DNA of 64,000 nt. It comes from Haliotis rubra (Eukaryota). The stretch covers positions 502,865 to 566,864 of the forward strand of contig NW_025766525.1 in the NCBI RefSeq assembly GCF_003918875.1. Direction: 5' to 3'. The notes below the pieces were generated by a model that searched no databases, was not told the origin of the DNA, and was given only the letters and a program-made list of their open reading frames with translations. The translations under genes were made by a program, and so were the position numbers. Positions 22,961-60,407 of this stretch are shown in pieces (positions within the stretch are counted from its first letter, which is position 1; each line of letters begins with the position of its first letter).

Positions 22961-23208
22961 ACCTGCTTTGAGCAGTACTGGTATGCTGAATACTGGAGGC
23001 TCACTCATTCACTCACTCACTCACTCACTCACTCAGCTACTGTCTACCGTTGTCGTAACTCCTCGAACATAGTCTCTATGATCACTGCGTGAACTTAGCT
23101 CAATCACTTCTTGTCCCATGTTGTTAGATTTTATACAATGTTGTCCAGTGTTGTCAAGTCTTGTCCCATGTTGTCCAGTGTTGTCAAGTCTTGTCCCATG
23201 TTGTCCAG

Positions 23209-25199: not shown

Positions 25200-27600
25200 A
25201 AAGAATTGATGTGAGGTGCTACTAATGTGTATTAAAGTGCAAGAGAAGTACGTAGGAGGTTGCCTACTGGTGTATCCTGGGAGAAGTGCGTAGGAGGTTG
25301 CCTACTGGTGTATTGGGAGAAGTGTGTAGGAGGTTGCCTACTGGTGTATTTGGGAGAAGTGTGTAGGATGTTGCCTACTGATGTGTTTGGGAGAAGTATG
25401 TAGGAGGTTGCCTACTGGTGTATTGGGAGAAGTGTGTAGGAGGTTGCCTACTGGTGTGTTTGGGAGAAGTGTGTAGGAGGTTGCCTACTGGTGTGTTTGG
25501 GAGAAGTGTGTAGGATGTTGCCTACTGGTGTGTTTGGGAGAAGTGTGTAGGATGTTGCCTACTGGTGTGTTTGGGAGAAGTGAGTGAGAGGTTGCCTACT
25601 GATGTATTTGGGAGAAGTGTGTAGGAGGTTGCCTACTGGTGTGTTTGGGAGAAGTGAGTGAGGAGGTTGCCTACTGATGTATTTGGGAGAAGTGTGTAGG
25701 AGGTTGCCTACTGTGTGTGTTTGGGAGAAGTGAGTAGGAGGTTGCCTACTGATGTATTTGGGAGAAGTGTGTAGGAGGTTGCCTACTGGTGTGTTTGGGA
25801 GAAGTGCCCTACTGATGGTGAGAGGTTGCCTACTGATGTGTTTGGGAGAAGTGTGTAGGAGGTTGCCTACTGGTGTGTTTGGGAGAAGTGTGTAGGAGGT
25901 TGCCTGCTGGTGTATTTGGGAGAAGTGTGTAGGAGGTTGCCTACTGGTGTATTTGGGAGAAGTGTGTAGGAGGTTGCCTACTGGTGTGTTTGGGAGAAGT
26001 GAGTGAGAGGTTGCCTACTGATGTATTTGGGAGAAGTGTGTAGGAGGTTGCCTACTGGTGTGTTTGGGAGAAGTGAGTGAGAGGTTGCCTACTGATGTGT
26101 TTGGGAGAAGTATGTAGGAGGTTGCCTACTGGTGTGTTTGGGAGAAGTGTGTAGGAGGTTGCCTACTGGTGTATTTGGGAGAAGTGAGTAGGAGGTTGCC
26201 TGCTGGTGTATTTCGGAGAAGTATGTAGGGGCTTGCCTACTAGTATATTGGGAGAAGTGAGTAGGAGGTTGCCTGCTGTTGTATTTGGGAGAAGTGTGTA
26301 GGAGGTTGCCTACGGGTGTGTTTGGGAGAAGTGAGTGGGAGGTTGCCTACTGATGTATTTGGGAAAAGTGAGTGGGAGGTTGCCTACTGATGTATTTGGG
26401 AGAAGTATGTAGGGGGTTGCCTACTGGTGTATTGGGAGAAGTGTGTAGGAGGTTGCCTACTGGTGTATTTGGGAGAAGTATGTAGGAGGTTGCCTACTGG
26501 TGTATTTGGGAGAAGTATGTAGGAGGTTGCCTACTGGTGTATTTGGGAGAAGTGTGTAGGAGGTTGCCTATTGGTGTATTTGGGAGAAGTGTGTAGGAGG
26601 TTGCCTACTGGTGTATTTGGGAGAAGTGTGTAGGAGGTTGCCTACTGATGTATTTGGGAGAAGTGTGTAGGAGGTTGCCATTTGGGAGGAGAAGTGGAGG
26701 TTTACTGGGAGGGTGAAGTGTAGGAGGTTGCCTACTGGTGTGTTTGGGAGAAGTGAGTGGAGGTTGCCTACTGATGTGTTTGGGAGAAAGTATGTAGGAG
26801 GTTGCCCACTGGTGTGTTTGGGAGAAGTGTGTAGGAGGTTGCCTACTGGTGTGTTTGGGGGAGAAGTGTAGGATGTTGCCTACTGGTGTGTTTGGGAGAA
26901 GTGTGTAGGAGGTTGCCTACTGGTGTATTTGGGAGAAGTGTGTAGGAGGTTGCCCACTGGTGTGTTTGGGAGAAGTGTGTAGGAGGTTGCCTACTGGTGT
27001 GTTTGGGAGAAGTGAGTAGGAGGTTGCCTACTGGTGTATTTGGGAGAAGTGAGTGGGAGGTTGCCTACTGGTGTGTTTGGGAGAAGTGTGTAGGAGGTTG
27101 CCTACTGGTGTATTTGGGAGAAGTGTGTAGGAGGTTGCCTACTGGTGTGTTTGGGAGAAGTGAGTGAGAGGTTGCCTACTGATGTGTTTGGGAGAAGTAT
27201 GTAGGAGGTTGCCTACTGGTTACTGTGTTGTTTGGTAGAAGTGTGTAGGAGGTTGCCTATTGGTGTGTTTGGGAGAAGTTAGTAGGAGGTTGCCTACTGA
27301 TGTGTTTGGGAGAAGTGTGTAGGATGTTGCCTACTGATGTGTTTGGGAGAAGTGTGTAGGAGGTTGCCTACTGGTGTGTTTGGGAGAAGTGTGTAGGAGG
27401 TTGCCTACTGGTGTGTTTGGGAGAAGTATGTAGGAGGTTGCCTACTGGTGTGTTTGGGAGAAGTGAGTGAGAGGTTGCCTACTGATGTATTTGGGAGAAG
27501 TGTATAGGATGTTGCCTACTGGTGTGTTTGGGAGAAGTGTGTAGGAGGTTGCCTACTGGTGTGTTTGGGAGAAGTGAGTGAGAGGTTGCCTACTGATGTG
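25200..27600. repeat. Minisatellite in PARP4 intron 6, about 37 bp x about 65 (gggagaagtgtgtaggaggttgcctactggtgtgttt)
   Basis: Read directly. Confidence 0.9.
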
Positions 27601-27636
27601 TCCTGGAAGTATTCAGTCCTATTGTCCTTGCTGCAG

Positions 27637-29289: not shown

Positions 29290-32040
29290 CATTGTGGTCA
29301 TTATTGAGTACTCACTGAAGAAGATAATGTTATGTAGTTAGCTCACCTGATGCAAGTGCCCAAGACAATGTTATTAAGTAGTCTCACCTGATGCAAGTGC
29401 CCAAAACAATGTTATCAAGTAGGCTCACCTGATGCAAGTGTCCAAAACAATGTTATCAAGTAGTCTCACCTGATGCAAGTGATGTTAGAGTGCCCAGGTG
29501 AAAGGTGCCCAAGACAATGTTATTAAGTAGTCTCACCTGGTGAAGAGTGCCCAAGTCAATGATATCAAGTAGTCTCACCTGGTGAAGAGTGCCCGAGACA
29601 ATGTTATCAAGTAGTCTCACCTGATGCAAGTGCCCGAGACAATGTTATTAAGTAGTCTCACCTGGTGAAGAGTGCCCAAAACAATGTTATCAAGTAGTCT
29701 CACCTGATGAAGTGCCCAAGAACAATGTTATTAAGTAGTCTCACCTGGTGAAGAGTGCCCAAAACAATGTTATCAAGTAGTCTCACCTGATGCAAGTGCC
29801 CAAGACAATGTTATTAAGTAGTCTCACCTGGTGAAGAGTGCCCAAAACAATGTTATCAAGTAGTCTCACCTGATGCAAGTGCCCAAGACAATGTTATTAA
29901 GTAGTCTCACCTGGTGAAGAGTGCCCAAAACAATGTTATCAAGTAGTCTCACCTGGTGAAAAGTGCCCAAAACAATGTTATCAAGTAGTCTCACCTGGTG
30001 AAGAGTGCCCAAAACAATGTTATCAAGTAGTCTCACCTGGTGAAAAGTGCCCAAAACAATGTTATCAAGTAGTCTCACCTGGTGCAAGTGCCCAAAACAA
30101 TGTTATCAAGTAGTCTCACCTGGTGAAAAGTGCCCAAAACAATGTTATCAAGTAGTCTCACCTGGTGAAAAGTGCCCAAGACAATGTTATCAAGTAGTCT
30201 CACCTGGTGAAAAGTGCCCAAAACAATGTTATCAAGTAGTGCAGAAAAGTGCCCAAAACAATGTTATCAAGTAGTCTCACCTGGTGAAAAGTGCCCAAAA
30301 CAATGTTATTAAGTAGTCTCACCTGGTGAAAAGTGCCCAAAACAATGTTATCAAGTAGTCTCACCTGGTGAAAAGTGCCCAAAACAATGTTATCAAGTAG
30401 TCTCACCTGGTGAAAAGTGCCCAAGACAATGTTATTCAAGTAGTCTCACCTGGTGAAAAGTGCCCAACATAATGTTATTAAGTAGTCTCACCTGGTGAAA
30501 GAGTGCCCAAGACAATGTTATCAAGTAGTCTCACCTGGTGAAAAGTGCCCAAAACAATGTTATCAAGTAGTCTCAAGTAGTCTCACAATGTTATCAAAGT
30601 CTCACCTGGTGCCCAAAACAATGTTATCAAGTAGTCTCACCTGGTGAAAAGTGCCCAAAACAATGTTATCAAGTAGTCTCACCTGGTGAAAAGTGCCCAA
30701 AACAATGTTATCAAGTAGTCTCACCTGGTGAAAAGTGCCCAAAACAATGTTATCAAGTAGTCTCACCTGGTGAAGAGTGTGCCAAAGACAATGTTATCAA
30801 GTAGTCTCACCTGGTGAAAAGTGCCCAAGATAATGTTATTAAGTAGTCTCACCTGGTGAAAAGTGCCCAAAACAATGTTATCAAGTAGTCTCACCTGGTG
30901 AAAAGTGCCCAAAACAATGTTATCAAGTAGTCTCACCTGGTGAAAAGTGCCCAAGACAATGTTATTAAGTAGTCTCACCTGGTGAAAAGTGCCCAAGATA
31001 ATGTTATCAAGTAGTCTCACCTGGTGAAAAGTGCCCAAAACAATGTTATCAAGTAGTCTCACCTGGTGAAAAGTGCCCAAGACAATGTTATCAAGTAGTC
31101 TCACCTGGTGAAAAGTGCCCAAAACAATGTTATCAAGTAGTCTCACCTGGTGAAAAGTGCCCAACATAATGTTATTAAGTAGTCTCACCTGGTGAAAAGT
31201 GCCCAACATAATGTTATTAAGTAGTCTCACCTGGTGAAAAGTGCCCAAAACAATGTTATCAAGTAGTCTCACCTGGTGAAGAGTGCCCAAAACAATGTTA
31301 TCAAGTAGTCTCACCTGGTGAAAAGTGCCCAAAACAATGTTATCAAGTAGTCTCACCTGGTGAAAAGTGCCCAAAACAATGTTATCAAGTAGTCTCACCT
31401 GGTGAAAAGTGCCCAAAACAATGTTATCAAGTAGTCTCACCTGATGCAAGTGCCCAAGACAATGTTATTAAGTAGTCTCACCTGTGCAAGTGCCCAAGAC
31501 AATGTTATTAAGTAGTCTCACCTGGTGAAGAGTGCCCAAAACAATGTTATCAAGTAGGTCTCACCTGATGAAAAGTGCCCAAAACAATGTTATTAAGTAG
31601 TCTCACCTGGTAAAAAGTGCCCAAAACAATGTCATCAAGTAGTCTCACCTGGTGAAGAGTGCCCAAACAATGTTATCAAGTAGTCTCACCTGGTGAAAAG
31701 TGCCCAAACAATGTTATCAAGTAGTCTCACCTGGTGAAAAGTGCCCAAAACAATGTTATCAAGTAGTCTCACCTGGTGAAAAGTGCCCAACATAATGTTA
31801 TTAAGTAGTCTCACCTGGTGAAAAGTGCCCAACATAATGTTATTAAGTAGTCTCACCTGTGAAAAGTGCCCAACAAATGTTACAAGTCAAGTAGTCTCAC
31901 CTGGTGAAAAGTGCCCAACATAATGTTATTAAGTAGTCTCACCTGTGAAAAGTGCCCAACATAATGTTATTAAGTAGTCTCACCTGTGAAAAGTGCCCAA
32001 CATAATGTTATTAAGTAGTCTCACCTGTGAAAAGTGCCCA
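29290..32040. repeat. Minisatellite in PARP4 intron 10, about 42 bp x about 65 (gtagtctcacctggtgaaaagtgcccaaaacaatgttatcaa)
   Basis: Read directly. The unit resembles the sequence just upstream of the exon 11 acceptor (aatgttatga...atttagctcacctggctctgttgcag). ORFs 29866-31449 are artefacts. Confidence 0.9.
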
Positions 32041-32112
32041 ACATAATGTTATGATTTATTAGTCACCGAAATGTTAATGACATGGTATTTAGCTCACCTG
32101 GCTCTGTTGCAG

Positions 32113-32296: not shown

Positions 32297-32299
32297 GTA

Positions 32300-33286
32300 G
32301 GATGCTTTGACTGCCAGGCTGATGTTTGAGTATGTTTTGATTGCAAGGCTGATGTTTGAGTATGTCTGACTGCCAGGCTGATGTTTGAGTATGTCTGACT
32401 GCCAGGCTGATGTTTGAGTATGTTTGACTGCCAGGCTGATGTTTGAGTATGTTTGACTGCCAGGCTAATTGTTTAGTATGTTTGACAGCCAGGCTGATGT
32501 TTGAGTATGTCTGACTGCCAGGCTGATGTTTGAGTATGTCTGACTGCCAGGCTGATGTTTGAGTATGTCTGACTGCCAGGCTGATGTTTGAGTATGTTTG
32601 ACAGCCAGGCTGATGTTTGAGTATGTCTGACTGCCAGGCTGATGTTTGAGTATGTCTGACTGCCAGGCTGATGCTTTAGTATGTTTGACTGCCAGGCTGA
32701 TGTTTGAGTATGTTTGACAGCCAGGCTGATGTTTGAGTATGTCTGACTGCCAGGCTGATGTTTTAGTATGTTTGACAGCCAGGCTGATGTTTGAGTATGT
32801 TTGACTGCCAGGCTGATGTTTGAGTATGTTTGACTGCCAGGCTGATGTTTGAGTATGTCTGACTGCCAGGCTGATGTTTGAGTATGTCTGACTGCCAGGC
32901 TGATGCTTTAGTATGTTTGACTGCCAGGCTGATGTTTGAGTATGTTTGACAGCCAGGCTGATGTTTGAGTATGTCTAACTGCCAGGCTGATGCTTTAGTA
33001 TGTTTGACAGCCAGGCTGATGTTTGAGTATGTTAGACTGCTAGGCTGACGTTTTAGTATGTTTGACAGGCTGATGTTTGACTGTTTGACTGCCAGGCTGA
33101 TTTTTGAGATGTTTGACTGCCAGGCTGATGTTTGAGTATGTTTGACTGCCAGGCTGATGTTTGTGTATGTTTGACTGTCAGGCTGATGTTTGAGTGTCAG
33201 GCTGATGTTTGACTGTTTGACTGCTAGGCTAATGTTTGAGTATGTTACTGTGCCAGGCTGATGTGTGATGATGTTTTTACTTCCAG
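32300..33286. repeat. Minisatellite in PARP4 intron 11, about 29 bp x about 34 (ctgatgtttgagtatgtctgactgccagg), abutting exon 12
   Basis: Each unit contains ccag|gctgatg, which is identical to the real acceptor plus the first 7 nt of exon 12 (ccag|GCTGATGag). Confidence 0.9.
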
Positions 33287-33443
33287 GCTGATGAGTATGC
33301 TGTGTACTGCGTCAAGCAGCAGCGTCTGAGATACCTGGTGGAGTTTAGCCTGCAGGGGGACCAAGTTCGGGATGTAATTCTAGCAGACATCCAGCAAGAC
33401 TTGGAGCAGACGGCACTGGCTGACATGTTGCAGGACAACTTGG
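33287..33443 (+). CDS. PARP4: PARP4 exon 12
   Basis: The acceptor is tacttccag|GCTGATG and the donor is G|gtatgt, phase 1. ADEYAVYCVKQQRLRYLVEFSLQGDQVRD matches human DDEFVVYKTNQVKMKYIIKFSMPGDQIKD. Confidence 0.8.
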
Positions 33444-34314: not shown

Positions 34315-34539
34315 GTGATAGTTCTCCAGGAGTACTACAACACCAGTGACACTGCTGTGGAGGCCAAATATGTGTTTCCTCTGGACGACATGGCTGCTGT
34401 GTGTGGGTTCGAAGCATTTATCAATGACAAGCACATCATAGGCGAGGTCAAAGAGAAGGAGCAGGCTCACAAGGAGTACAAGAAGGCTGTCAGTGAAGGT
34501 CATGGAGCTTATCTGATGGACAGAGATGAAGAGACACCG
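34315..34539 (+). CDS. PARP4: PARP4 exon 14 (VIT domain)
   Basis: The acceptor is tctgcag|GTG and the donor is CCG|gtaagt. VIVLQEYYNTSDTAVEAKYVFPLDDMAAVCGFEAFINDKHIIGEVKEKEQAHKEYKKAVSEGHGAYLM matches human VIVFQTYTNKSHVPIEAKYIFPLDDKAAVCGFEAFINGKHIVGEIKEKEEAQQEYLEAVTQGHGAYLM. Confidence 0.9.
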
Positions 34540-34605
34540 GTAAGTTTGGCTGAAGGTCAACAGTGAAGGTCATGGAGCTTATCTGATTGACAGAGATGAA
34601 GACAC

Positions 34606-35172
34606 CATTCTTTTCCCACAGAGGTTACTCCTGTCATATCTTCCCACATGTAACCTCTGTTCTAATAATGCCCTTTCATGGTGTGAGCTGCTTCAAGACT
34701 CCTCGGATTGGAGACAATCAGATTTAGTTGTGCAATCAGCAACGCTTGTTTCAAAAGTGATCATTCGCAAGGCCCTCGGTAATTTCCGTGATACTTCGAG
34801 AAAACTAAACCTTCTTCCCGCGCCGATGCGCTAAACGCTTCCTCTAGACAGAACTCAGTCATGTTATGGCGGATCAGTGGATCTCCATCGCCTCGCTGAC
34901 AACGGACAAGCTAGCCATTAAACGCCTTGTGTGTAACATCAACACAAGTCCCCGCAGATGGGGATATTTGTGGCTTCACATTTGCTTGTGTTAGTCAAGT
35001 TGAATCTAAGTCGATGTAACACCTGTTCTGATTGGATAGAAAGAAGGGAGATAATTCATTTTGCGATCTTTGCCGCTTAGGGATTTTAAGAGAACCGGGA
35101 AATATGGCCGTATTAGAACAGAGGTTACGTGTAGGAAGATATGACAGGAGTAACCTCTGTGGGAAGAGAATG
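34606..35172. mobile_element. MITE (about 567 bp, TIRs of about 55 bp), copy 1, in PARP4 intron 14
   Basis: The left TIR is cattcttttcccacagaggttactcctgtcatatcttcccacatgtaacctctgttctaata. Its reverse complement lies at 35118-35172 (tattagaacagaggttacgtgtaggaagatatgacaggagtaacctctgtgggaagagaatga). Confidence 0.7.
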
Positions 35173-35809
35173 ATGAAGAGACACTGGTAAGTTTGGCTGA
35201 AGGTCAACAGTGAAGGTCGTGGACATTATCTCATGGACAGAGATGAAGAGACACTGGTAAGTTTGGCTGAAGGTCAACAGTGAAGGTCATGGAGCTTATC
35301 TCATGGACAGAGATGAAGAGACACTGGTAAGTTTGGCTGAAGGTCAACAGTGAAGGTCATGGAGCTTATCTGATGGACAGAGATGAAGAGACACCGGTAA
35401 GTTTGGCTGAAGGTCAACAGTGAAGGTCATGGAGCTTATCTGATGGACAGAGATGAAGAGACACCGGTAAGTTTGGCTGAAGGTCAACAGTGAAGGTCAT
35501 GGAGCTTATCTGATGGACAGAAGATGAAGAGACACACCTGTAAGTTTGGCTCAAGGTCAACAGTGAAGGTCATGGAGCTTATCTGATGGACAGAGATGAA
35601 GAGACACTGGTAAGTTTGGCTGAAGGTCAACAGTGAAGGTCATGGAGCTTATCTCATGGACAGATTAAGAGACACTGGTAAGTTTGGCTGAAGGTCAACA
35701 GTGAAGGTCATGGAGCTTATCTGATGGACAGAGATGAAGAGACACCGGTAAGTTTGGCTGAAGGTCAGTAGTGATGCTCATGGAGCTTATCTGATGGACA
35801 GAGATGAAG

Positions 35810-36377
35810 CATTCTCTTCCCACAGAGGTTACTCCTGTCATATCTTCCCACGTAACCTCTGTTCTAATAATGGCCCTTTCATGGTGTGAAGCGTTCAAGA
35901 CTTCGTGATTGGAGACAATCAGATTTAGTTGTGCAATCAGCGGCGTTGTTTCAAAAGTGATCATTTGCAAGGCCTCGGTAATTTCCGTATACTCGAGAAA
36001 ACTAAACCTCTTCCCCTGCGCGCGATGCGCATAGCGTTTCCTCTAGACAGAACTCAGTCATGTTATGGCCCGGATCAGTGGCGTCTCCATCGCCCTCGTT
36101 GACAACGGACAAGCTAGCCATTAAAGCGTCTTGTGTGTAACATCAACACAAGTCCCCGGCAGATGGGGGATATTTGTGGCTTCACATTTGCTTGTGTTAG
36201 TCAAGTTGAATCTAAGTCGATGTAACACCTGTTCTGATTGGATAGAAAGAAGGGAGATAATTGCATTTTTGCGATCTTTTGCGCTAGGGATTTTAAGAGA
36301 ACGGGAAATATGGTCAGATTAGAACAGAGGTTACGTGAGGAAGATATGACAGGAGTAACCTCTGTGGGAAGAGAATG
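35810..36377. mobile_element. MITE copy 2 (same family as 34606-35172)
   Basis: It is near-identical to copy 1 and sits in the same donor-repeat context. This implies duplication of a MITE-plus-array block. Confidence 0.7.
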
Positions 36378-36679
36378 AGATGAAGAAGAGACACTGGTAA
36401 GTTTGGCTGAAGGTCAACAGTGAAGGTCATGGAGCTTATCTCATGGACAGAGATGAAGAGACATTGGTAAGTTTGGCTGAAGGTCAACAGTGAAGGTCAT
36501 GGAGCTTATCTCATGGACAGAGATGAAGAGACACTGGTAAGTTTGGCTGAAGGTCAACAGTGAAGGTCATGGAGCTTATCTCATGGACAGAGATGAAGAG
36601 AGAATGGTAAGTTCGGTCATCAGTGAAGGTTATGGGGTGTGTTGTAAGAGAAGGTCATTTATCCATTCTGATGGACAGA

Positions 36680-37200
36680 ATTTTAGGATTGCAGTAAGTT
36701 AGAGGTGAAGGTCTGACAGGGATGTTGTCAGGGAAGATTGTGGATCTTGTCTGATACAGTAAGTTAGAGGTGAAGGTCTGACAGGGATGTTGTCAGGGAA
36801 GATAGTGGCTCTTGTCTGATACAGCAAGTTAGAGGTGAAGGTCTGACAGGGATGTTGTCAGGGAAGATTGTGGATCTTGTCTGATACAGTAAGTTAGAGG
36901 TGAAGGTCTGACAGGGATGTTGTCAGGGAAGATTGTGGATCTTGTCTGATACAGTAAGTTAGAGGTGAAGGTCTGACAGGGATGTTGTCAGGGAAGATTG
37001 TGGATCTTGTCTGATACAGTAAGTTAGAGGTGAAGGTCTGACAGGGATGTTGTCAGGGAAGATAGTGGCTCTTGTCTGATACAGCAAGTTAGAGGTGAAG
37101 GTCTGACAGGGATGTTGTCAGGGAAGATTGTGGATCTTGTCTGATACAGTAAGTTAGAGGTAAGGTCTGACAGGGATGTTGTCAGGGAAGATTGTGGATC
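36680..37200. repeat. Tandem array, about 62 bp x 8 (cagtaagttagaggtgaaggtctgacagggatgttgtcagggaagattgtggatcttgtctgata)
   Basis: Read directly. Confidence 0.85.
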
Positions 37201-37319
37201 TTGTCTGATACAGTAGAGAATAACGTCTTGATTGAAAGAGAACAACAGGGCTCCCACGGGTCAGGGAAAAGTCAGAACCAGGCATATTGATATTGCTGTC
37301 ATCACTAAGAACCAGTTTC

Positions 37320-37376
37320 TGTGAGCATGTTTAATGTTTCAGGATGTTTAATGTTTCAGCATGTTTAATGTTTCAG
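37320..37376 (+). repeat. Triplicated exon 15 acceptor motif (atgtttaatgtttcag x3) immediately upstream of exon 15
   Basis: The sequence reads gcatgtttaatgtttcag gatgtttaatgtttcag catgtttaatgtttcag|GATGTG. Confidence 0.85.
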
Positions 37377-37541
37377 GATGTGTTCACAGTGAGTGTTGGC
37401 AACCTCCCACCCCATGCATCTGTCCTCATCAAGATTACTTACGTAGCTGAACTACAGGTTGAAGCAGAACTTATAAGTTTCCGGTTACCAGGCAGTGTGG
37501 CACCATGGAAGCAAGACTCTGCAGCTGATGAAATCACTCAG
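37377..37541 (+). CDS. PARP4: PARP4 exon 15 (VIT domain)
   Basis: The acceptor is gtttcag|GAT and the donor is CAG|gtattt. DVFTVSVGNLPPHASVLIKITYVAEL...VAPWKQD matches human DVFTVSVGNLPPKAKVLIKITYITEL...VAPWQQD. Confidence 0.9.
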
Positions 37542-37985: not shown

Positions 37986-38125
37986 AGAACTGCTGCCAAG
38001 GCTGTAGTGCAGATGTGTCATGGACAGTCAATACAAGATGGCTTCCAGCTCCTGATTGGGCTGGCTGAGATACACGTGCCACGGATGTGGGTAGAGAGAC
38101 ATCCAGAGAGAGAGACATGCATCAG
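37986..38125 (+). CDS. PARP4: PARP4 exon 17 (end of VIT domain), with a phase problem at its 3' end
   Basis: The acceptor is cttccag|AGA. RTAAKAVVQMCHGQS...GLAEIHVPRMWVERHPERETCI matches human RTDCKAVISTMEGSS...GLSAAYLPRMWVEKHPEKESE. The only GT donor (CATCAG|gtaggc) leaves phase 2, which is incompatible with exon 18 (phase 0). The difference is one AG unit in a (AG)5 run. Confidence 0.6.
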
Positions 38126-40010
38126 GTAGGCTGGCAGAGGAATGATGGTCTAGTTTGTGGGTAGAGAGACATCCAGAGAGAGAGAGACATGCATCAGGCA
38201 GGCAGGCAGAGGAATGATGGTCTAGTTTGTGGGTGGAGAGACATCCAGACAGAAAGAGACATGCATCAGGTAGGCTGGCAGAGGAATGATGGTCTGGTTT
38301 GTGGGTGGAGAGACATCCAGAGAGAGACATGCATCAGGTAGGCAGGCAGAGGAATGATGGTCTAGTTTGTGGGTGGAGAGACATCCAGAGAGAGAGAGAC
38401 ATGCATCAGGTAGGCAGGCAGAGGAATGATGGTCTAGTTTGTGGGTAGAGAGACATCCAGAGAGAGAGAGACATGCATCAGGCAGGCAGGCAGAGGAATG
38501 ATGGTCTAGTTTGTGGGTGGAGAGACATCCAGACAGAAAGAGACATGCATCAGGTAGGCAGGCAGAGGAATGATGGTCTAGTTTGTGGGTGGAGAGACAT
38601 CCAGAGAAAGACATGCATCAGGTAGGCAGGCAGAGGAATGATGGTCTAGTTTGTTGGTGGAGAGAGACCAGAGAGAGAGAGAGACATGTATCAGGTAGGC
38701 AGGCAGAGGAATGATGGTCTAGTTTGTGGGTAGAGAGACATCCAGAGAGAGACATGCATCAGGTAGGCAGGCAGAGGAATGATGGTCTAGTTTGTGGGTG
38801 GAGAGACATCCAGGAGAGACACATCAGGTAGGCAGGCAGAGAGATGGTCATGCATCCAGAGACATGCATCAGGTAGGCAGGCAGAGGAATGATGGTCTAG
38901 TTTGTGGGTGGAGAGACATCCAGAGAGACATGATCATAGGCTGGCAGAGGAATGATGGTCTTGTTTGTGGGTAGAGGACATCCAGGCATCAGAGGAATGA
39001 TGGTCTAGTTTGTGGGTGGAGAGACATCCAGAGAGAGACATGCATCAGGTAGGCAGGCAGAGGAATGATGGTCTAGTTTGTGGGTAGAGAGACATCCAGA
39101 GAGAGAGAGACATGCATCAGGTAGGCAGGCAGAGGAATGATGGTCTAGTTTGTGGGTGGAGAGACATCCAGAGAGAGACATGTATCAGGTAGGCAGGCAG
39201 AGGAATGATGGTCTAGTTTGTGGGTGGAGAGACATCCAGAGAGAGACATGTATCAGGTAGGCAGGCAGAGGAATGATGGTCTAGTTTGTGGGTAGAGAGA
39301 CATCCAGAGAAAGACATGTATCAGGTAGGCTGGCAGAGAAATGATGGTCTGGTTTGTGGGTGGAGAGACATCCAGAGAAAGACATGCATCAGGTAGGCAG
39401 GCAGAGGAATGATGGTCTAGTTTGTGGGTGGAGAGACATCCAGAGAGAGAGAGACATGTATCAGGTAGGCAGGCAGAGGAATGATGGTCTAGTTTGTGGG
39501 TAGAGAGACATCCAGAGAGAGACATGCATCAGGTAGGCAGGCAGAGGAATGATGGTCTAGTTTGTGGGTGGAGAGACATCCAGAGAGAGACATGCATCAG
39601 GTAGGCAGGCAGAGGAATGATGGTCTAGTTTGTGGGTGGAGAGACATCCAGAGAGAGACATGCATCAGGTAGGCAGGCAGAGGAATGATGGTCTAGTTTG
39701 TGGGTGGAGAGACATCCAGAGAAAGACATGTATCAGGTAGGCAGGCAGAGGAATGATGGTCTAGTTTGTGGGTAGAGAGACATCCAGAGAGAGAGAGACA
39801 TGCATCAGGTAGGCAGGCAGAGGAATGATGGTCTAGTTTGTGGGTGGAGAGACATCCAGAGAGAGACATGTATCAGGTAGGCAGGCAGAGGAATGATGGT
39901 CTAGTTTGTGGGTGGAGAGACATCCAGAGAGAGAGACATGCATCAGGTAGGCAGGCAGAGGAATGATGGTCTAGTTTGTGGGTAGAGAGACATCCACAGA
40001 GAGAGACATG
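38050..40010. repeat. Exon 17 donor-derived minisatellite in intron 17, about 68-76 bp x about 27
   Basis: The unit gtgggtggagagacatccagagagagacatgcatcag|gtaggcaggcagaggaatgatggtctagttt reproduces the exon 17 3' end (WVERHPERETCI) plus the GT donor. The (ag)n length varies between copies. ORFs 38028-38614 and 39253-39525 are artefacts. Confidence 0.9.
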
Positions 40011-40150
40011 CATCAGGCAGGGGATGCCGCATGCGACATGTTATATGTGTGTTTGGATCGTTGTTGTTGTTTGAGTAACATCATGGTGTGCCAGGTTCAT
40101 GTTGGGTATTCCCTCCACAATCATTCTTTGTTCTTCATTCTATATTCTAG

Positions 40151-40337
40151 GCCTGCATGTTGACATTTTACCCTGAGTTTGAGGCTGACGAGGACGATGA
40201 TGTGGAAATTGTGTTCGTCCTTGACCTCTCCAATTCCATGTCTGGTGATGCAGTGCTGGATGCCAAGAAGCTGTTGATGATGTTGCTGCACAACTTGCCA
40301 CCGCGCTCTACCTTCAACGTCCTCTGCTTCGGAACAG
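40151..40337 (+). CDS. PARP4: PARP4 exon 18 (vWA domain start)
   Basis: The acceptor is tattctag|GCC and the donor is ACAG|gtcagt, phase 1. ACMLTFYPEF...VEIVFVLDLSNSMSGDAVLDAKKLLMMLL...FNVLCFGTG matches human ACMLVFQPDL...EVIICLDCSSSMEGVTFLQAKQIALHAL...VNIIQFGTG. Confidence 0.85.
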
Positions 40338-40469: not shown

Positions 40470-43140
40470 TGTTGTGGATTGGTAACGTCATGACACAAGG
40501 TTGTGGGAAGGTTGTAGATTGGTAACATCATGACACAGCGTTGTGGGAAGGTTGTAGATTGGTAATGTCATGACACAATGTTGTGGGAAAGTTGTAGGTT
40601 AGTAACATCATGACACAACGTTGTGGGAAGGTTGTAGATTGGTAACGTCATGACACAACGCTGTGGGAAGGTTGTAGATTGGTAATGTCATGGTACAATG
40701 TTGTGGGAAGGTTGTAGATTGGTAACATCATGACAACATTGTGGGAAGGTTGTCGATTGGTAATGTCATGACACAAGGTTGTGGGAAGGTTGTAGATTGG
40801 AAACGTCATGACAACGTTGTGGGAAGGTTGTAGATTGGTAACGTCATGACAGCAATTTTGTGGGAAGGTTGTAGATTAGTAACGTCATGACACAAGGTTG
40901 TGGGAAGGTTGTAGATTGGTAACATGATGACACAGCGTTGTGGGAAGGTTGTAGATTGGTAATATCATGACACAGTGTTGTGGGAAGATTGTAGATTGGT
41001 AACGTCATGACACAACGTTGTGGGAAGGTTGTAGATTGGTAACATCATGACACAGCATTGTGGGAAGGTTGTAGATTGGTAACGTCATGACACAACGTTG
41101 TGGGAAGGTTGTAGATTGGTAATGTCATGACACAATGTTGTGGGAAGGTTGTAGATTGGTAACATCATGACACAATGTTGTGGGAAGGTTTTAGATTGGT
41201 AACGTCATGACACAATGTTGTGGGAAGGTTGTAGATTTGTAATGTCATGACACAACATTGTGGGCAGGTTATAGATTGGTAACGTCATGACACAATGTTG
41301 TGGGGATGTTGTAGATTAGTAACATCATGACAACGTTGTGGGAAGGTTGTAGATTGGTAACGTCATGAAACAACGTTGTGGGAAGGTTATAGATTGGTAA
41401 TGTCATGAGAAAAGGTTGTGAAAAGGTTATAGATTGGTAACGTCATGACACAATGTTGTGGGAAGGTTGCAGATTGGTAATGTCATGACACAATGTTGTG
41501 GGGATTTTGTAGATTGGTAACGTCATGACACAATGTTGTGGGGATGTTGTAGATAAGTAACATCATGACACAGCGTTGTGGGAAGGTTGTAGATTGGTAA
41601 TGTCATGACACAACGTTGTGGGAAGGTTATAGATTGGTAATGTCATGAGAAAAGGTTGTGAAAAGGTTATAGATTGGTAACGTCATGAGAAAAGGTTGTG
41701 GGAAGGTTGTAGATTGGTAATGTCATGACACAGCGTTGAGGGAAGGTTGTAGATTGGTAACGTCATGAGAAAAGGTTGTGGGAAGGTTATAGATTGGTAA
41801 TGTCATGACACAGCGTTGTGGGAAGGTTATAGATTGGTTACGTCATGAGAAAAGGTTGTGGGAAGGTTGTAGATTGGTAATGTCATGACACAGCGTTGTG
41901 GGAAGGTTGTAGATTGGTAACGTCATGACAAAGGTTGTGGGAAGGTTATAGATTGGTAATGTCATGACACAGCGTTGTGGGAAGGTTATAGATTGGTAAC
42001 GTCATGAGAAAAGGTTGTGGGAAGGTTGTAGATTGGTAATGTCATGACACAGCGTTGTGGGGATGTTGTGGATTGGTAACGTCATGACACAATGTTGTGG
42101 GGATGTTGTAGATTGGTAACGTCATGACACAAGGTTGTGGGAAGGTTGTAGATTGGTAACATCATGACACAGCGTTGTGGGAAGGTTGTAGATTGGTAAT
42201 GTCATGACAGCGTTGTGGGAAGGTTGTAGATTGGTAATGTCATGACACAGGCGTTGTGGGAAGGTTGTAGATTGGTAATGTCATGACACAGCGTTGTGGG
42301 AAGGTTGTAGATGTCATGACACAGCGTTGTGGGAAGGTTGTAGGTTGGTAATGTCATGACACAGCATTGTGGGAAGGTTGTAGATTGGTAACATCATGAC
42401 ACAACGCTGTGGGAAGGTTGTAGATTGGTAATGTCATGACACAGCGTTGTGGGAAGGTTGTAGATTGGTAATGTCATGACACAGCGTTGTGGGAAGGTTA
42501 TAGATGTCATGACACAGCGTTGTGGGAAGGTTATAGATTGGTAATGTCATGACACAGCGTTGTGGGAAGGTTGTAGGTTGGTAATGTCATGACACAGCGT
42601 TGTGGGAAGGTTGTAGATGTCATGACACAGCGTTGTGGGAAGGTTGTAGGTTGGTAATGTCATGACACAGCGTTGTGGGAAGGTTGTAGATTGGTAATGT
42701 CATGACACAACGTTGTGGGAAGGTTATAGATTGGTAATGTCATGACACAGCGTTGTGGGAAGGTTGTAGATGTCATGACACAGCGTTGTGGGAAGGTTGT
42801 AGATGTCATGAGACAGCGTTGTGGGAAGGTTGTAGATGTCATGACACAGCGTTGTGGGAAGGTTGTAGATGTCATGACACAGCGTTGTGGGAAGGTTGTA
42901 GGTTGGTTATGTCATGACACAGCGTTGTGGGAAGGTTGTAGATTGGTAATGTCATGACACAACGTTGTGGGAAGGTTATAGATTGGTAATGTCATGACAC
43001 AGCGTTGTGGGAAGGTTGTAGATGTCATGACACAGCATTGTGGGAAGGTTGTAGATGTCATGACACAGCGTTGTGGGAAGGTTGTAGATGTCATGACACA
43101 GCGTTGTGGGAAGGTTGTAGATGTCATGACACAGCGTTGT
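40470..43140. repeat. Minisatellite in PARP4 intron 18, about 39 bp x about 68 (gttgtgggaaggttgtagattggtaacgtcatgacacaa)
   Basis: Read directly. ORFs 42660-43208 are artefacts. Confidence 0.9.
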
Positions 43141-43459
43141 GGCAAATTGCCAAATAAACATTGAAGTGAATTTCTGCTTTGTTTCTTACTACTGGGAAAA
43201 CAATTCAACTATTAACATAAATAGAACGTTAAGTCAACGTAAAATACGTTAGTGTCAAATACCTTAACGTAAATGGGAGCCCATCAGAATAACGTTGTAA
43301 CAGCGAAAGCATAATGTGGTGACTTCATTTTGTAGAATAGACGAATATGGGTCTGAATGATGACATAAAGGAAGACACCCTAGTTTGTGAACTATGATAA
43401 ATTGGGAGTAATATTTGAGTAAGTTATGTTCCTGTACATGGTGTTTGGTGTGTTGCCAG

Positions 43460-47459: not shown

Positions 47460-48700
47460 AAACACTGTCAGTGTTGTGGGGTGGCTTATCTCACCACTGT
47501 GGGATGGCTTATCTCACTTCTGTGGGGTGGCTTATCTCATCACTGTGGGGTGGCTTATTTCACCACTGTGGGGTGGCTTATTTCACCACTGTGGGGTGGC
47601 TTATCTCACCACTGTGGGGTGGCTTATCTCACTACCGTGGGACGGCTTATCTCACCACAGTATGATGGCTTATCTCACCACTGTAGGGTGGCTTATCTCA
47701 CCACTGTGGGGGAATTATCTCTTTTCCGTTGGGGGCTTATCTCACCACTATTGGGTGGGGTATCTCACCACTGTGGGGTGGCTTGTCTCACCTCTGTGTG
47801 TGTGTGTGGGGGGGCTTGGGGGCCTTATCTCACCACTGTAGGATGGCTTATCTCATCACTGTAGGGTGGCTTATCTCACCACTGTGGGGTGGCTTATCTC
47901 ACTTCTGTGGAGTAGCTTATCCCATCACTGTGGGGTGGCTTATCTCACCACTGTGGGGTGGCTTATCTCACCACTGTGGGGTGGCTTATCTCACTTCTGT
48001 GGAGTAGCTTATCTCATCACTGTGGGGTGGCTTATCTCATCACTGTAGGCTGGCTTATCTCACTTCTGTTGGGGGCTTATCTCACCACTATTGGGTGGGG
48101 TATCTCACCGCTGTGGGGTGGCTTGTTTCATGACTGTGGGGCTGCTTATCTCACCAATCTGGGGTGGCTTATCCCATCACTGTGGGGTGGCTTATCTCAC
48201 CACTGTGGGGGTTTATCTCACTTCTGTGGAGTAGCTTATCTCATCACTGTGGGGTGGCTTATCTCACCACTGTTGGGGGCTTATCTCACTTCTGTTGGGG
48301 GCTTATCTCACCACTATTGGGTGGGGTATCTCACCACTGTGGGGTGGCTTGTCTCACCACAGGGTGTGTGTGTGGGGGGGCCTTATCTCACCACTGAGGG
48401 GTGGCTTATCTCACCACTGTGGGGGGCTTATCTCACCACTGTGGGGTGGCTTATCTCACCACTGTGGGGTGGCTTATCTCACCACTGTGGGATGGCTTGT
48501 CTCATCACTGTGGGTGGCTTATCTCATCACTGCGGGTGGCGTATCTCACCACTATTGCTTGGCTTATCTCACCACTATTGCTTGGCTTATCTCACCACTG
48601 TGGGGTGGCTTATCTTACCACTGTGGGGTGGCTTGTCTCACCACTGTGGGGTGGTGTATCTCATCACTGTGGCTTATGTCGACACTTTTGGGTGGCTTAT
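47460..48700. repeat. Minisatellite in PARP4 intron 21, about 23 bp x about 54 (cactgtggggtggcttatctcac)
   Basis: Read directly. ORFs 47454-48747 are artefacts. Confidence 0.9.
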
Positions 48701-49087: not shown

Positions 49088-49122
49088 GTGGGTATATATG
49101 GGTAGTAGATGTGTTAACGCTT

Positions 49123-49125
<3 letters not shown>

Positions 49126-49180
<55 letters not shown>
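49126..49180. repeat. (GAT)n microsatellite inside the 114-bp PARP4 intron 22
   Basis: gatgatgat... repeats about 18 times. Confidence 0.95.
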
Positions 49181-49201
49181 TATCTGACTGTTTCGATGTA
49201 G

Positions 49202-56692: not shown

Positions 56693-57759
56693 GTGATTCC
56701 TAGCATTACATCTCAAGTGACGCTTCCTTGCAGTGCGGCGCTTTCCACTTTGGTGGTTGTTACTACGTCTGTTTCCCATTCGGTGTTTGCGTCGAATGTG
56801 TCACTTGCTTTGGGTACAGGGGATAGTTTTGATGCGGCGCTTTCTCATCCTCCGGTGGGGTTGACAAGTGTGTCGATGATTCCCAGAGTACCTTTTTCCA
56901 CTTCTATCCCGTATCCTGTACCGTTTGGTTATGGGCCACCATTCAGCGTTCTTGTTTGCCCCCAGTTCAGTGCTTACTACTGGTGCTCCTGGTTCGGCGC
57001 TTCCTCTCGGTGTTCCCGGTTCGGCGCTAATTCATGCAGGCTTGGGTTCGGTACTTCCTCATGGTGCTCCCGGTGCGGCGCTTACTCATAGTACTCCCGG
57101 TTCAGCGCTTCCCCACGGTGTTTGTGCTTCGGTGCTTAGGCATATTGTTCCTGGTTCGGCGCTTTCTCATAGTTCACTGGCTTCAAGATTGACTCATGGG
57201 GCGTTTGGTTCGCTGCTTCCTCAGGGTTTAGTGCTTACCTATCATGTGTCTAGTTCAGCGCTGGGTCCGCTCAGCTCAACTTTTGCTGTCAATGCCCGGG
57301 ACCTTACGGCTTCATCGTTGCTTCATAGGGGTGTGTCTCAGTCTGCTAGAGGTCCGTCTTCTCTTAGTGAGGTGCCACATCATCTCTCGGTGTCTGCTTC
57401 TGTTTCGTCGGTTCCTCCTACAATGGGATCGGTGGCCAGACCCATTTTACCGGTATCCTGGAATCTGGGGTCTGAGGTTTCGAGTTCTCAACCTATGGAC
57501 CTATGTTATTGTGCTAGCGGTAGCGTCAGCATTACGACAGCAGGTGTCAGCATCTTCCTCTGCTAATCAGTCATCAGGTCCTTTGACTACTCCAGTTCCT
57601 CTTTTAGAGGAGGTTCATCGTTCGACGACGCCATCTCCTTCGTGTGATGATACGGCACTATCCGATGGGTGCATGGATGCTGTTGACACACCTCAACTAC
57701 TTGTCTGGATTGCCGATAGCCTTCGTTTACAGCATAGTAGTTTGCCGGGGGATTTATAA
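56693..57759 (+). other. DIRS-like element 5' ORF region (putative gag-like), spread over three overlapping frames
   Basis: ORFs 56693..57091, 56925..57566 and 57244..57759 overlap in different frames and are Ser/Pro/Leu-rich. Frameshifts or decay are implied. Confidence 0.3.
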
Positions 57760-58473
57760 TCCAGTTTTGACATGAAGCCAGGTGACTTTGGCTCTATCAC
57801 GTTCCCGCCTCGTCCGTGTATTACTCAATTGGCAGCATCTCTGGATGAGGCTTTTGGTAACCTGAGGAAGGTTAAGGATGGGTTTGCGGCTCCTCACTTC
57901 AATTTAGCATCTGCTCATGTTCATGGTTTTTCTACGCTAATCGTCTCCCCTCCGGTGGATGATGATATTGCATTGCTGTGCACTAAACAGAAAGCCTACT
58001 CGCCGTTGCTGGTTGAGGATCGTGAGCTTTTGCATTTGGATGGTGTCATAAGGAAGATTATGCCGCCACTCAACATGTTGTTGAGGACTACCGAAGCGGT
58101 GGCTATGTCGGTTGCGCATGCTACGTCCCATCAACATGTGTGTATATTCGGGCAGCTATGGTCTTATTGCAACAGCAATTCCAGACCATTCTAGATCAGT
58201 TGGCTCACTTCTTTTCGTACATCACAGCTGTGCGTCGCATGGGGCCTTTGCACTTATCCTCTTTGGAGGATTGGTTCCGTATTGATCTCTTTCGGCAGCC
58301 ATGGTCTGGCAGATAAATTTTCAACGGGGCAGTTAGAGATGTCGCCAACAGAGTAGGTCAAGATGCTCATTTACAAGTGTCAGTGGAATTGTTGAAGTTC
58401 CAGCGTTTGCAGGTGGAGGAATCATTGCGCCAGCGACGGCCAGCCCGTTATGTCCATGTGAATCCGGACCTTC

Positions 58474-59364
58474 GTGCGGGTTCTGCTGCTTCCTTTCGTG
58501 GTAATGGATCCTTTGGGAGAGGACGACTCAACCATCAACGTCGGGCATCCACTGCTTCACAATCAGCTCCCACTTCCGACCAGCCCACTTTGCAAACACC
58601 TGACAAACAGTGACTTGAGGACATTAGCAGGCGACTTGGTTCTTCCACCTCCAGTCATGCCCATTCTGACTTCCCCAGTAGGCGGCTGGCTTGGGACTTA
58701 TGCTCCCAACTGGACCATCTTGGGAAACCCCTTCGTCCTCTCCATGTTGTCCATGGGTTTTCAGCTGCCACTCATCGGGGATCCTCCTCTCACTTTACTT
58801 CCAGATCGCAGAACGTATCCCGCTCAACAAACGGCAGTTCTGCGATCCACAATAGACACCTTACTCAAGAAACTTGCGATCGAATCCCTGGGTCCGGCTC
58901 CCACCGCCCCGGGGTTCTATTCTCCAATCTTTCTGGTCCCCAAGAAGGATTCGGACAAACTGAGGTTAATCTTCAACATGAAGATTTTCAACGAGATGTT
59001 TCTGCAGCCTCCGCCCCATTTTCGCATGGTATTGGTGGCACTCCTCAAGACCATTATCAAGCCGGGAGACTACATGGTCAGTTTGGATCTCCAGGATGCG
59101 TACCTTCACATCCCGATCTTCCTGGCTCATCACAAGTTCCTTCGGTTTGTCTTCGAGGGCACCCACTATCAGTGGCGTGTCCGCCCGTTTGGAATTTCTT
59201 CAGCCCCGTGGCTGTTTACATGGGTAACGAAACCTATCACCAGCTTCCTTCACCACAAGGGGATAGTGTTCGAAGCTTACATTGACGACTGCATTCAGGC
59301 GCAGACCGATCATGCCCTTTTGCTTCGTCACATGCAGTTACGATACAGCTTCTTCGCCAATTAA
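58474..59364 (+). CDS. Reverse transcriptase domain ORF of the DIRS-like element
   Basis: It carries FYSPIFLVPKKDSDKLRLIFNMKIFN (RT motifs 1-2), LDLQDAYLHIPI (motif A/B region), QWRVRPFGISSAPWLFT and YIDDCI (a YxDD-like box). Confidence 0.8.
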   Translation: MRVLLLPFVVMDPLGEDDSTINVGHPLLHNQLPLPTSPLCKHLTNSDLRTLAGDLVLPPPVMPILTSPVGGWLGTYAPNWTILGNPFVLSMLSMGFQLPLIGDPPLTLLPDRRTYPAQQTAVLRSTIDTLLKKLAIESLGPAPTAPGFYSPIFLVPKKDSDKLRLIFNMKIFNEMFLQPPPHFRMVLVALLKTIIKPGDYMVSLDLQDAYLHIPIFLAHHKFLRFVFEGTHYQWRVRPFGISSAPWLFTWVTKPITSFLHHKGIVFEAYIDDCIQAQTDHALLLRHMQLRYSFFAN

Positions 59365-59813
59365 GCTGGTTAATCAATCTGCAGAAATTGGAACTAGCCC
59401 CTATGCACCATCTTCAATTCATTGGAGCAGTGTTCGACACAGAGGCCAACAAACTCTTTGTCCCGAGGGATCGTTTCTACAAGATTCAGCGATTGGTTTC
59501 TCTGGCACTGGTGCAACCCAGGACGCTTCGTCAGTGGCAGGAGCTCCTGGGCCTCTTGACGTCGGCTCAGGCGTTCACCCTCAGGGGTCAACTACAACTT
59601 CGTCCCTTGCAGTTCTTTGTAGCGCCTTACATCAGAGTGGGAGATCCCGTTGCCTTGATCACTCTACCTCTGCAGCTCCATCCCCATCTCCTGTGGTGGA
59701 TGGCAGAATTGAATGTTTGCGACGGAGTTTGTTTAGGGCCGTTTGTTCCGTCTTACCACCTGTATGCGGACGTGTCTCTACACAGGTGAGGAGCTCATCT
59801 TCTCAATCAACAA

Positions 59814-60407
59814 GTGGCAGGGCGGTGGTCTCCCATCGATCGCGCCTGTCACATCAACGTTCTGGAGTTCAGGGCGGTGATGCTTGCAATCAGTCACTGG
59901 CAGGATGTCCTACGAGCAACTTCCCTCATGATCCGGTCGGACAACGCAGCGGTGATTTGGCATATCAACAGGATGGGGTCCACGGGGTCAACTCAACTGC
60001 TGCAGTGGACCCAACGGTTTCTTCGATCTGGTGGACTCTCTCCACATCATGGTATGAGCCAACTACATTCCGGGGGTGAAGAATGTCATCGCAGATTCTC
60101 TGTCCCGACTGAGTCGTCCCTCTCCAACGGAATGGAAATTACATCCTCAGGTGTTCCAGACCTGTTGCCTTCCATTGACGACTCTGACAGTGGATCTCTT
60201 CGCCACTCAATTCAACCATCAGCTGCCTCGGTTTGTGTCACCGATTCCGGATCCTCTGGCTTGGGACCTCGATGCCCTAGCCATTCCGTGGGAGGACCTG
60301 AACGCTTACGCGTTTCCACCAGTGGCCCTTCTTCCTCGCATATTAGTGAAGCTGCGTGCAACTCAGAGGATGACTCATCTTTTGGTCGCGTCCTATTGGC
60401 CGGCTAG
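59814..60407 (+). CDS. RNase H domain ORF of the DIRS-like element, frameshifted relative to RT
   Basis: It carries INVLEFRAVMLAI and IRSDNAAVIWHINRMG, typical RNase H catalytic motifs. The adjoining ORF 60076..60561 carries KNVIADSLSR, the end-of-RNase-H motif of DIRS/Ngaro pol. Confidence 0.65.
   Translation: MAGRWSPIDRACHINVLEFRAVMLAISHWQDVLRATSLMIRSDNAAVIWHINRMGSTGSTQLLQWTQRFLRSGGLSPHHGMSQLHSGGEECHRRFSVPTESSLSNGMEITSSGVPDLLPSIDDSDSGSLRHSIQPSAASVCVTDSGSSGLGPRCPSHSVGGPERLRVSTSGPSSSHISEAACNSEDDSSFGRVLLAG

Follow-up and report, generated by a model that had tools for sequence, protein, structure and literature searches.

The stretch of DNA analyzed here, hereafter the window, comprises 64,000 nucleotides from Haliotis rubra (assembly GCF_003918875.1, contig NW_025766525.1, positions 502,865 to 566,864 of the forward strand). 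The sequence is eukaryotic, with a G+C content of 43%, and minisatellite arrays make up 27% of it. On the plus strand lies a PARP4-like gene, for which we built a model of 23 coding exons from open segments, splice sites and continuity of the reading frame. When the assembled 1,156-amino-acid product is compared with Pfam, matches are found to BRCT (residues 2-95), PARP_reg (316-399), PARP (440-599), VIT (660-772) and VWA (908-1060). This search covers the 23 mapped exons, and the C-terminal region of the protein lies beyond them. The resulting domain order (BRCT, PARP regulatory, PARP catalytic, VIT, vWA) establishes the gene as PARP4-like and bears out the name given to it in an initial annotation of the window. 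Our subject is intron 17 of this gene, which is filled almost completely by tandem copies of the end of the preceding exon together with its 5' splice site, or donor.

Exon 17 carries this number correctly, as the initial annotation had it, when coding exons are counted from the BRCT start in the window. Homologues read ...HVPRMWVE... over exon 17 and PRMW[VA]E...Q/ACMLTFYPEF across its junction with exon 18 (here and below, a slash marks an exon boundary), and the ACMLTFYPEF segment encoded by exon 18 is conserved among them. The best named homologue is that of the bivalve Solemya velum, with 56-64% identity.

The program Tandem Repeats Finder (TRF) reports one minisatellite at 38086-40021, with a period of 68, 27.6 copies, 86% matches and a score of 2681, thus upholding the earlier description of an intron filled with copies of the exon end and donor. 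By splitting the array at the start of the unit, using the anchor TGT[GT]GGT[AG]GAG, we resolved 28 copies. Their lengths are 68 nt (15 copies), 72 nt (seven), 70 nt (two) and 73 nt (one), with four irregular copies of 110, 63, 45 and 45 nt, rather than the 68-76 bp first estimated. In the modal 68-nt unit, TGTGGGTGGAGAGACATCCAGAGAGAGACATGCATCAG/GTAGGCAGGCAGAGGAATGATGGTCTAGTT, the end of the exon contributes 38 nt and the start of the intron 30 nt. Copy 1 (38086-38155) is composed of the final 40 nt of exon 17, the GT of the donor at 38126, and the remainder of 30 intronic nt. An alignment of the repeat consensus to exon 17, which had been proposed as a check, reveals identity at 39 of 40 positions of the exon end, and the z score is 25.8 against a background of 42 exon flanks from the other 21 introns of the gene. 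The array was derived from the exon and not the reverse, as the conserved (M)WVERH is encoded by the unit's first 16 nt.

A 24-nt junction probe, with at most four mismatches permitted, detects 25 further copies. Every one lies within intron 17; the rest of the window and the minus strand have none. The array accounts for 1,896 of the 2,025 bases of the intron (94%). The remaining unique 129 nt, together with the 30 intronic nt of copy 1, imply an ancestral intron of approximately 159 nt. Full-length copies exhibit a mean pairwise identity of 94%, and the degenerate copies 11-13 separate a more varied 5' block (identity 0.933) from a more uniform 3' block (0.954). Identical copies also recur at non-adjacent positions, with offsets of 10-11 units (copies 8-10 equal 19-21, and 15-16 equal 25-26; copy 2 likewise equals copy 6), indicating that growth of the array included duplications of multi-unit blocks. 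The pure AG run within each copy spans four to seven units, and not three to five as previously noted, and some copies carry interrupted variants (AGAGAAAG, AGACAGAAAGAG). The repeated coding piece corresponds to amino acids 878-889, which by the Pfam boundaries belongs to the VIT-vWA linker, and not to the C-terminus of the VIT domain to which it had been assigned. No Rfam families were found in the window.

Although a GT donor was initially ascribed to each copy, intact CAGGTAGGC sites number 24 and are spread over 23 of the 28 copies. Copies 2, 6 and 28 carry CAG/GC, and copies 12 and 13 are degenerate at this position. The first donor and the intact pseudo-donors share a score of 8.3, which equals the median for the 21 other real donors of the gene (mean 8.2) and is reached by only seven of its 2,164 other intronic GT dinucleotides. 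All three frames of the unit hold stop codons, 68 is not a multiple of three, and each of the 24 array donors, when joined onward, leads to a premature stop. We also considered cassette exons or recursive splice sites within the array. The sole AG of the unit (tctag/) is preceded by four pyrimidines among the 12 positions from -15 to -4, compared with 6-10 (mean 8.3) for the real acceptors (n = 22), and this poor tract makes in-array cassette exons unlikely; we therefore set this candidate aside.

Table 1. Positions in the window of exons 17 and 18, the intron 17 array and other arrays of the PARP4-like gene.
Feature	Position	Strand	Basis
17th coding exon, 140 nt as assembled; its first base opens a codon, its last two bases belong to an incomplete one	37986..38125	+	Exon map, frame check
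(AG)5 tract, 2 nt longer than the in-frame (AG)4	38105..38114	+	Direct reading, copy table, orthologue comparison
Most upstream donor CAG/GTAGGC, presumed authentic 5' splice site of intron 17	38126..38131	+	Donor score, Solemya position
Minisatellite of 28 copies	38086..40021	+	TRF, copy dissection
Intronic decoy copies 2-28 with 23 intact CAG/GTAGGC pseudo-donors (GT at 38270 ... 39947)	38156..40021	+	Copy table, junction probe
Degenerate middle copies 11-13 (110, 63, 45 nt)	38793..39010	+	Copy dissection
Unique 3' end of intron 17 with polypyrimidine tract and acceptor ...ttctag	40022..40150	+	Non-repetitive
18th coding exon, ACMLTFYPEF...VFVLDLSNSMSG, start of vWA; begins on a codon boundary	40151..40337	+	Exon map, Pfam
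Intron 14 arrays from exon 14 end and donor: 70-nt unit at 34494-34607, 35172-35809 and 36385-36613; diverged 65-nt relative at 36692-37215	34494..37215	+	TRF, junction probe, exon alignment
Intron 11 array, 29-nt unit, ~31 copies; unit holds ccag/GCTGATG(tttg)AGTATG, the acceptor and exon 12 start	32306..33299	+	TRF, by eye
Large arrays of introns 6, 10, 18 and 21 (1.2-2.7 kb; units 37, 42, 40 and 23 nt)	25243-27601, 29326-32052, 40471-43142, 47475-48672		

The coding end of copy 1 does not splice in frame as assembled, contrary to what had been assumed. Joining the first donor to exon 18 yields a product ending ...ERETCIRPAC*, and intron 17 is thus the only one of 22 introns in the model for which no in-frame GT-AG solution exists, while the remaining 21 junctions and 22 exons of the gene are intact. 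The difference lies in the (AG)n tract. The in-frame form is found solely in the 68-nt copies with (AG)4, which read WVERHPERDMHQ and match codon for codon the WVERHPDRPDHQ encoded by L003, one of three related loci described below; the coding reading first proposed, WVERHPERETCI, is partly frameshifted. Orthologues likewise carry the in-frame length. When all frame-preserving GT/GC-AG pairs around intron 17 are enumerated, the only donors obtained are TGG/GTAGAG at 38091 and two sites deeper in the exon. The former scores 1.6, compared with 4.1-10.9 for the 21 real donors, and the two deeper sites are likewise far weaker. Inclusion of one 40-nt cassette from within the array would also mend the frame (140 + 40 = 180 nt), but its acceptor is poor.

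One explanation for this frameshift, to which we assign somewhat less than an even chance, is an error of consensus or assembly in a dinucleotide run at the edge of the array, such that the true exon carries (AG)4 and the gene is intact. The integrity of all 21 other junctions and 22 other exons argues for such an error, as does the in-frame length of the modal array copy and of every orthologue, and one amphioxus array belonging to the class discussed below was reported to be aberrantly assembled in a genome draft (PMC3087553). Against an error, unique sequence upstream anchors copy 1, and five units make a short dinucleotide run. Moreover, copy 27, with 97% identity to copy 1, also falls in the 70-nt length class, and a real allele produced by exchange or slippage is equally possible. 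The (AG)5 may thus represent a consensus error, a real defective allele, or the product of exchange with a 70-nt copy. For gene annotators, the practical consequence is that broken or mis-phased models are to be expected at the exon 17 junction.

Three open reading frames (ORFs) from related sequences, P0034, P0041 and P0042, read exon 17 through its donor into an intron that repeats WVERH.DRP.HQ/VG. They belong to loci L003, L004 and L005, drawn from three ENA assemblies, each with an array at the exon 17 donor junction. In L003 and L004, the intron 17 arrays share a period of 68 and comprise 10.1 and 12.2 copies, respectively, even though the two proteins are 97% identical. In all three loci, the unit start (TGTGGGTGGAGAGACA), the offset of CATCAG/GT and the 38 + 30 split are the same as in the window. 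Copy 1 is in frame in this lineage, and CATCAG/GTGGGT sites number eight in L003, ten in L004 and seven in L005. The exon part of these units follows the exon sequence of their own lineage, suggesting that the coding end and its intronic copies are homogenized together.

Other lineages have a plain intron or none. In locus L006, intron 17 measures approximately 365 nt and no arrays are present anywhere in the locus. No repeat is found in the 256 nt of intron 17 that precede the contig end in L007, and Solemya velum has an intron of approximately 415 nt at the same position with no array. The Solemya intron lies on a codon boundary (TCA CAG/gtatac ... cgcag/GCT TGC ATG), and an intron at exactly this position, also on a codon boundary, is present in L003, L004 and L006. 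This conservation indicates that the intron is ancestral. Locus L002 lacks an intron at the exon 17/18 site, as do ORFs P0005-P0008.

Do the arrays of the window and of the L003 lineage share one origin? We consider a single origin the likely case, since it is the simpler reading of an identical unit start and unit length. An independent origin of the two arrays at a local hot spot appears unlikely, although several observations speak for it. No similarity is detectable between the 30 intronic nt of the unit in the window and in L003 (p = 0.77). Protein identities among the window, L003, L006 and L007 are 0.75-0.82, leaving these four lineages about equidistant, and the identity matrix did not separate the window and L003 as sister lineages. 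Both lineages form new junction arrays separately (the intron 14 array is donor-derived in the window and acceptor-derived in L003), and the G content of the region is high, with motifs of the GTGGGTGG type lying both within the exon and immediately past the donor. However, the unit start (TGTGGGT) is equal to within a few bases, and the 68-nt period, the 38 + 30 split and the CATCAG/GT offset are shared, a coincidence that, barring a hot spot, would occur at a rate of about 1 in 1,000 by rough estimate. In addition, lineages this divergent are expected to have saturated neutral intron sequence, which leaves the dissimilarity of the intronic part with little weight.

These related loci carry further junction arrays without counterparts in the window. 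At positions 3258-7950 of L003, an array in intron 14 of approximately 4.7 kb contains 50 copies of an 89-nt unit with 98% identity; this unit holds tgcag/GATATGTTCACAGTGAGTG, which represents the acceptor and approximately 25 nt of exon 15. The acceptor-derived array in intron 14 of L004 (832-1410) spans approximately 0.6 kb. Repeats of 66/96 nt in intron 18 (L003 14512-14925 and L004 6863-7250) contain gtgcag/GGTACAGGGAGCTGT, corresponding to the acceptor and the start of exon 19. The first 33 positions of L005 (1-33) are a Nextera transposase adapter (TCGTCGGCAGCGTCAGATGTGTATAAGAGACAG) and are not genomic.

Within the window, a second intron with a donor-derived array had been noted in the same gene, and intron 14 confirms this. 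Exon 14 ends ...GAAGAGACACCG/gtaagt, with the GT at 34540, and the 70-nt unit is composed of the last ~49 nt of exon 14, GTAAGT and 21 nt of intron. There are 12 extra junction copies, and the exon origin is supported by z scores of 32.7 for the 70-nt unit and 3.5 for its 65-nt relative. The arrays of intron 14 are interrupted by two elements of approximately 565 bp (~34606-35172 and 35810-36378) that are 91% identical to each other and have terminal inverted repeats of ~60 nt (CATTCTCTTCCCACAGAGGTTACTCCTGTCATATCTTCC...). No further copies of this element were found in the window. Both elements occupy the same position in the unit, indicating that a block comprising the element and about nine units was itself duplicated.

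Arrays with acceptor content are also evident. Intron 11 (32297-33286) consists of array over 98% of its length, leaving a non-repeat remainder of 20 nt; the overlap of its unit with exon 12 is short and is not significant in an alignment test restricted to exon sequence. Preceding exon 4, a 10/30-nt unit (tgttgtccag, 23109-23208) reiterates the acceptor and offers an in-frame alternative acceptor at 23179, and a 17-nt unit (atgtttaatgtttcagg, 3.2 copies, 37327-37381) lies across the exon 15 acceptor. When applied to the whole gene, the strict 24-nt junction probe reveals decoys only for donors 14 and 17; this probe misses short acceptor overlaps, which we judged by eye and by gapped alignment. 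For the arrays of introns 3 (a 43-mer), 6, 10, 18 and 21, tests of exon origin gave no significant homology. Two apparent resemblances were rejected. The intron 3 43-mer matches exon 4 over 13 nt (z = 5.6) but is located 1.6 kb away from that exon, and we took the match as chance; between the intron 10 unit and the acceptor region of exon 11, the likeness is not significant.

The presence of two donor-derived arrays in one gene had been read as favoring a locus- or lineage-specific mechanism over coincidence. To evaluate this proposal, we used a neutral seeding model in which a first duplication of length u has a uniformly distributed start and is tolerated if it is wholly intronic or spans one junction. 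The chance of spanning a junction is then 2(u-1)/(L+u-1), which we summed over the eight large arrays. Once arrays are subtracted, six of the eight array-bearing introns measure ~50, 150, 200, 260, 490 and 560 nt; the array-free introns of the gene measure 114-710 nt, with one exception of 1,584. With these remainders taken as ancestral lengths, the model expects 2.4 junction-spanning and 1.2 donor-spanning arrays among the eight, compared with three and two observed (two spanning donors and one spanning an acceptor), and the probability of at least two donor-spanning arrays is 0.35. Observed numbers lie near the expectation, and so no donor-directed mechanism is needed and nothing points to one: two donor-derived arrays are expected given the minisatellite load and the short introns. 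Thus, the lineage-specific part of the earlier proposal stands, in view of the 27% minisatellite content and the arrays of L003, L004 and L005, but what is specific to the lineage is the minisatellite load. Targeting of donors is not indicated, given the seeding result, the five arrays with no significant exon homology and the one array that spans an acceptor.

Minisatellites whose first monomer lies over an exon-intron boundary have been described in the human genes F7, IFI6/6-16, CBS, LMNB2 and PDGF (Borensztajn et al., 2006; PMC1557585). Among these, the 37-bp variable number tandem repeat in intron 7 of F7 has five to nine identical donors; 50 minigene constructs demonstrated that splicing selects the functional donor lying farthest upstream, while the pseudo-sites, though competent, remain silent (PMC1557585). 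As summarized in the same paper, intron 2 of IFI6 (6-16) carries 25 pseudo-sites, the two nearest of which are also used constitutively, and CBS intron 13 (IVS13), LMNB2 and PDGF have 10-20 units of 31-100 bp that reiterate the donor (PMC1557585). In amphioxus, minisatellite-like tandem duplications termed 'mirages' occur at either the 5' or the 3' boundary of introns in Adh3, TnC, the globins BflGb6/9 and PGBD5 (PMC3087553, PMC3902484). Several can be present per gene, their length varies between haplotypes, they are homogenized within clusters, and the mRNA is reportedly undisturbed.

The intron 17 array shares the defining anatomy of these systems. It is a head-to-tail intronic array whose outermost monomer holds the real exon-intron junction, and it is homogenized internally, as evident from the 94% mean identity and the many identical non-adjacent copies. 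As in F7, the presumed authentic donor is followed by identical pseudo-donors, although F7 has five to nine units of 37 bp with four exonic nt each, whereas the intron 17 array has 28 units of 68 bp, each with 38-40 coding nt and a frame-sensitive (AG)n. The number of intact pseudo-donors (23) is close to the 25 summarized for IFI6; in contrast to the use of the two nearest sites in that gene, any such use here would add 68-72 nt with stops. CBS IVS13, LMNB2 and PDGF, insofar as that summary describes them, belong to the same class. As with mirages, both sides of introns are affected, with donor-side arrays in introns 14 and 17 and an acceptor-side array in intron 11 of the window, and acceptor-side arrays in introns 14 and 18 of L003. 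Between the related assemblies L003 and L004, array lengths differ (10.1 versus 12.2 copies for intron 17 and ~4.7 versus ~0.6 kb for intron 14), and the window itself represents one haplotype. Mirages differ in being reported from lancelets only and in having three to six units (BflGb6), compared with 28 here. The locus is therefore an unusually large case of a repeat class that is already known. Two findings are new: the exon end is frameshifted as assembled, and a second lineage, fairly distant from the first, has an array at the same junction, a situation for which we found no description in the literature.

Taken together, these observations make it probable that the array is a boundary-spanning minisatellite of the mirage type, a class assignment that follows from its structure, with its splicing behavior argued by analogy. 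Its history may have begun when a ~68-bp segment was duplicated in tandem. This segment would have run from 38 nt before the end of the exon, across the 5' splice site, to 30 nt into an intron that was then short (~160 nt). Slippage and unequal exchange, including multi-unit steps, would then have amplified this segment to ~28 copies. Copy 1 presumably remains the working exon end, while the other copies would be intronic passengers, each with a normal-strength donor and a purine-rich stretch like that of an exon. These pseudo-donors would be tolerated if the spliceosome takes the most upstream donor of the series, and any use of a later donor would add 68-72 nt with stops, giving a product likely to be removed by nonsense-mediated decay. 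Copy 1, held by selection, could not be lost, and the array might on this account persist and re-expand. Exchange between copy 1 and the other copies would cause the coding end and the intronic copies to evolve jointly, and the same exchange would expose the exon to out-of-frame variants, of which the (AG)5 of this assembly may be an example.

Several points weigh against this account. First, the initial donor as assembled gives no in-frame mRNA, and so copy 1 is the working exon end only if (AG)5 is an error or a defective allele. Second, use of the first donor and silence of the pseudo-sites are extrapolated from other genes and taxa. Third, the arrays of the window and of L003 may not descend from one ancestor, given the dissimilar intronic 30 nt and the near-equidistance of the four lineages. 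Finally, the seeding model assumes that the non-array remainder of each intron today equals its ancestral length.

A bolder extension of this history, which we regard as speculative and rather improbable, is that the array is ancient, anchored on copy 1 and kept since before the split between the window and L003-L005. Exchange with the exon end would then be what makes the VIT-vWA linker evolve rapidly and vary in length (HPERDMHQ versus HPDRPDHQ), and it would generate frameshift alleles repeatedly. In the sequenced haplotype, the frame might be restored via one 40-nt cassette from a 68-type copy (tctag/TTTGTGGG...CATCAG/gt; 140 + 40 = 180 nt), in which case the WVERHPER motif would be duplicated in the protein.

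It is more doubtful still that the array functions in the control of splicing through its ~23 extra U1-binding sites and its purine-rich, enhancer-like sequence. Such a function, by whichever of the routes one might envision (stronger definition of exon 17, retention of U1 on the intron, or regulated diversion to degraded out-of-frame products), appears very unlikely. The pseudo-donors are as strong as real donors, every pseudo-donor product has a premature stop, and the presence of an array at this junction also in a lineage ~75-82% identical in protein could reflect retention. Nevertheless, L006, Solemya and the sequenced part of L007 have a plain intron and L002 has none, copy number differs between L003 and L004, and conservation of the unit between lineages does not extend to its intronic part. 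Furthermore, other introns of the gene hold equally large arrays with no splice-site content, and the pseudo-sites of F7 have no detected role (PMC1557585). The least probable proposal, creation of the intron by the duplication itself (Rogers-type intron gain from an AGGT-containing exon segment), is in line with the AG/GT in the unit and with the absence of an intron here from L002 and ORFs P0005-P0008, but it is contradicted by the conserved intron, which Solemya, L003, L004 and L006 share at this codon boundary, and it also conflicts with an acceptor located outside the array, in the 129 nt that are unique, and with the failure of an array AG joined downstream to restore the frame.

The locus has several uses. 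A natural series of identical 5' splice sites, here 24 donors of equal strength, is a rare test bed for the choice of donor among equals, and neighboring introns of the same gene add both donor-side and acceptor-side arrays to it. The comparison with L003-L005 shows that junction arrays can be present at one junction in lineages only ~75-82% identical in protein, and intron 17 illustrates how a short intron can expand ten-fold. Such arrays would also endanger the reading frame at the end of a coding exon, which may exchange sequence with copies that are out of frame, and specialists in splicing or genome evolution might value the locus both for its series of 24 donors and for a coding end that appears to evolve jointly with its intronic copies.

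Other features of the window and of Solemya were recorded in passing. The Solemya velum PARP4 locus is split into several short 'hypothetical protein' models, and a second gene model with BRCT and PARP_reg matches lies tail-to-tail just downstream of the PARP4-like fragments (L001 18361-20077, minus strand). In the window, the short intron 22 of the gene (49088-49201) contains a perfect (GAT)18 microsatellite at 49126-49180. Long open reading frames at ~57700-61650 (plus strand) and 2200-4050 (minus strand) look retroelement-like, putatively of the DIRS type, with apparent reverse transcriptase-like and tyrosine recombinase-like products. Finally, an open frame at 63103-63999 (plus strand) runs to the end of the window and encodes a WH2-like motif (LLQQIGNGKQLKKV) and poly-proline runs; presumably it is the start of a neighboring actin-regulator gene.

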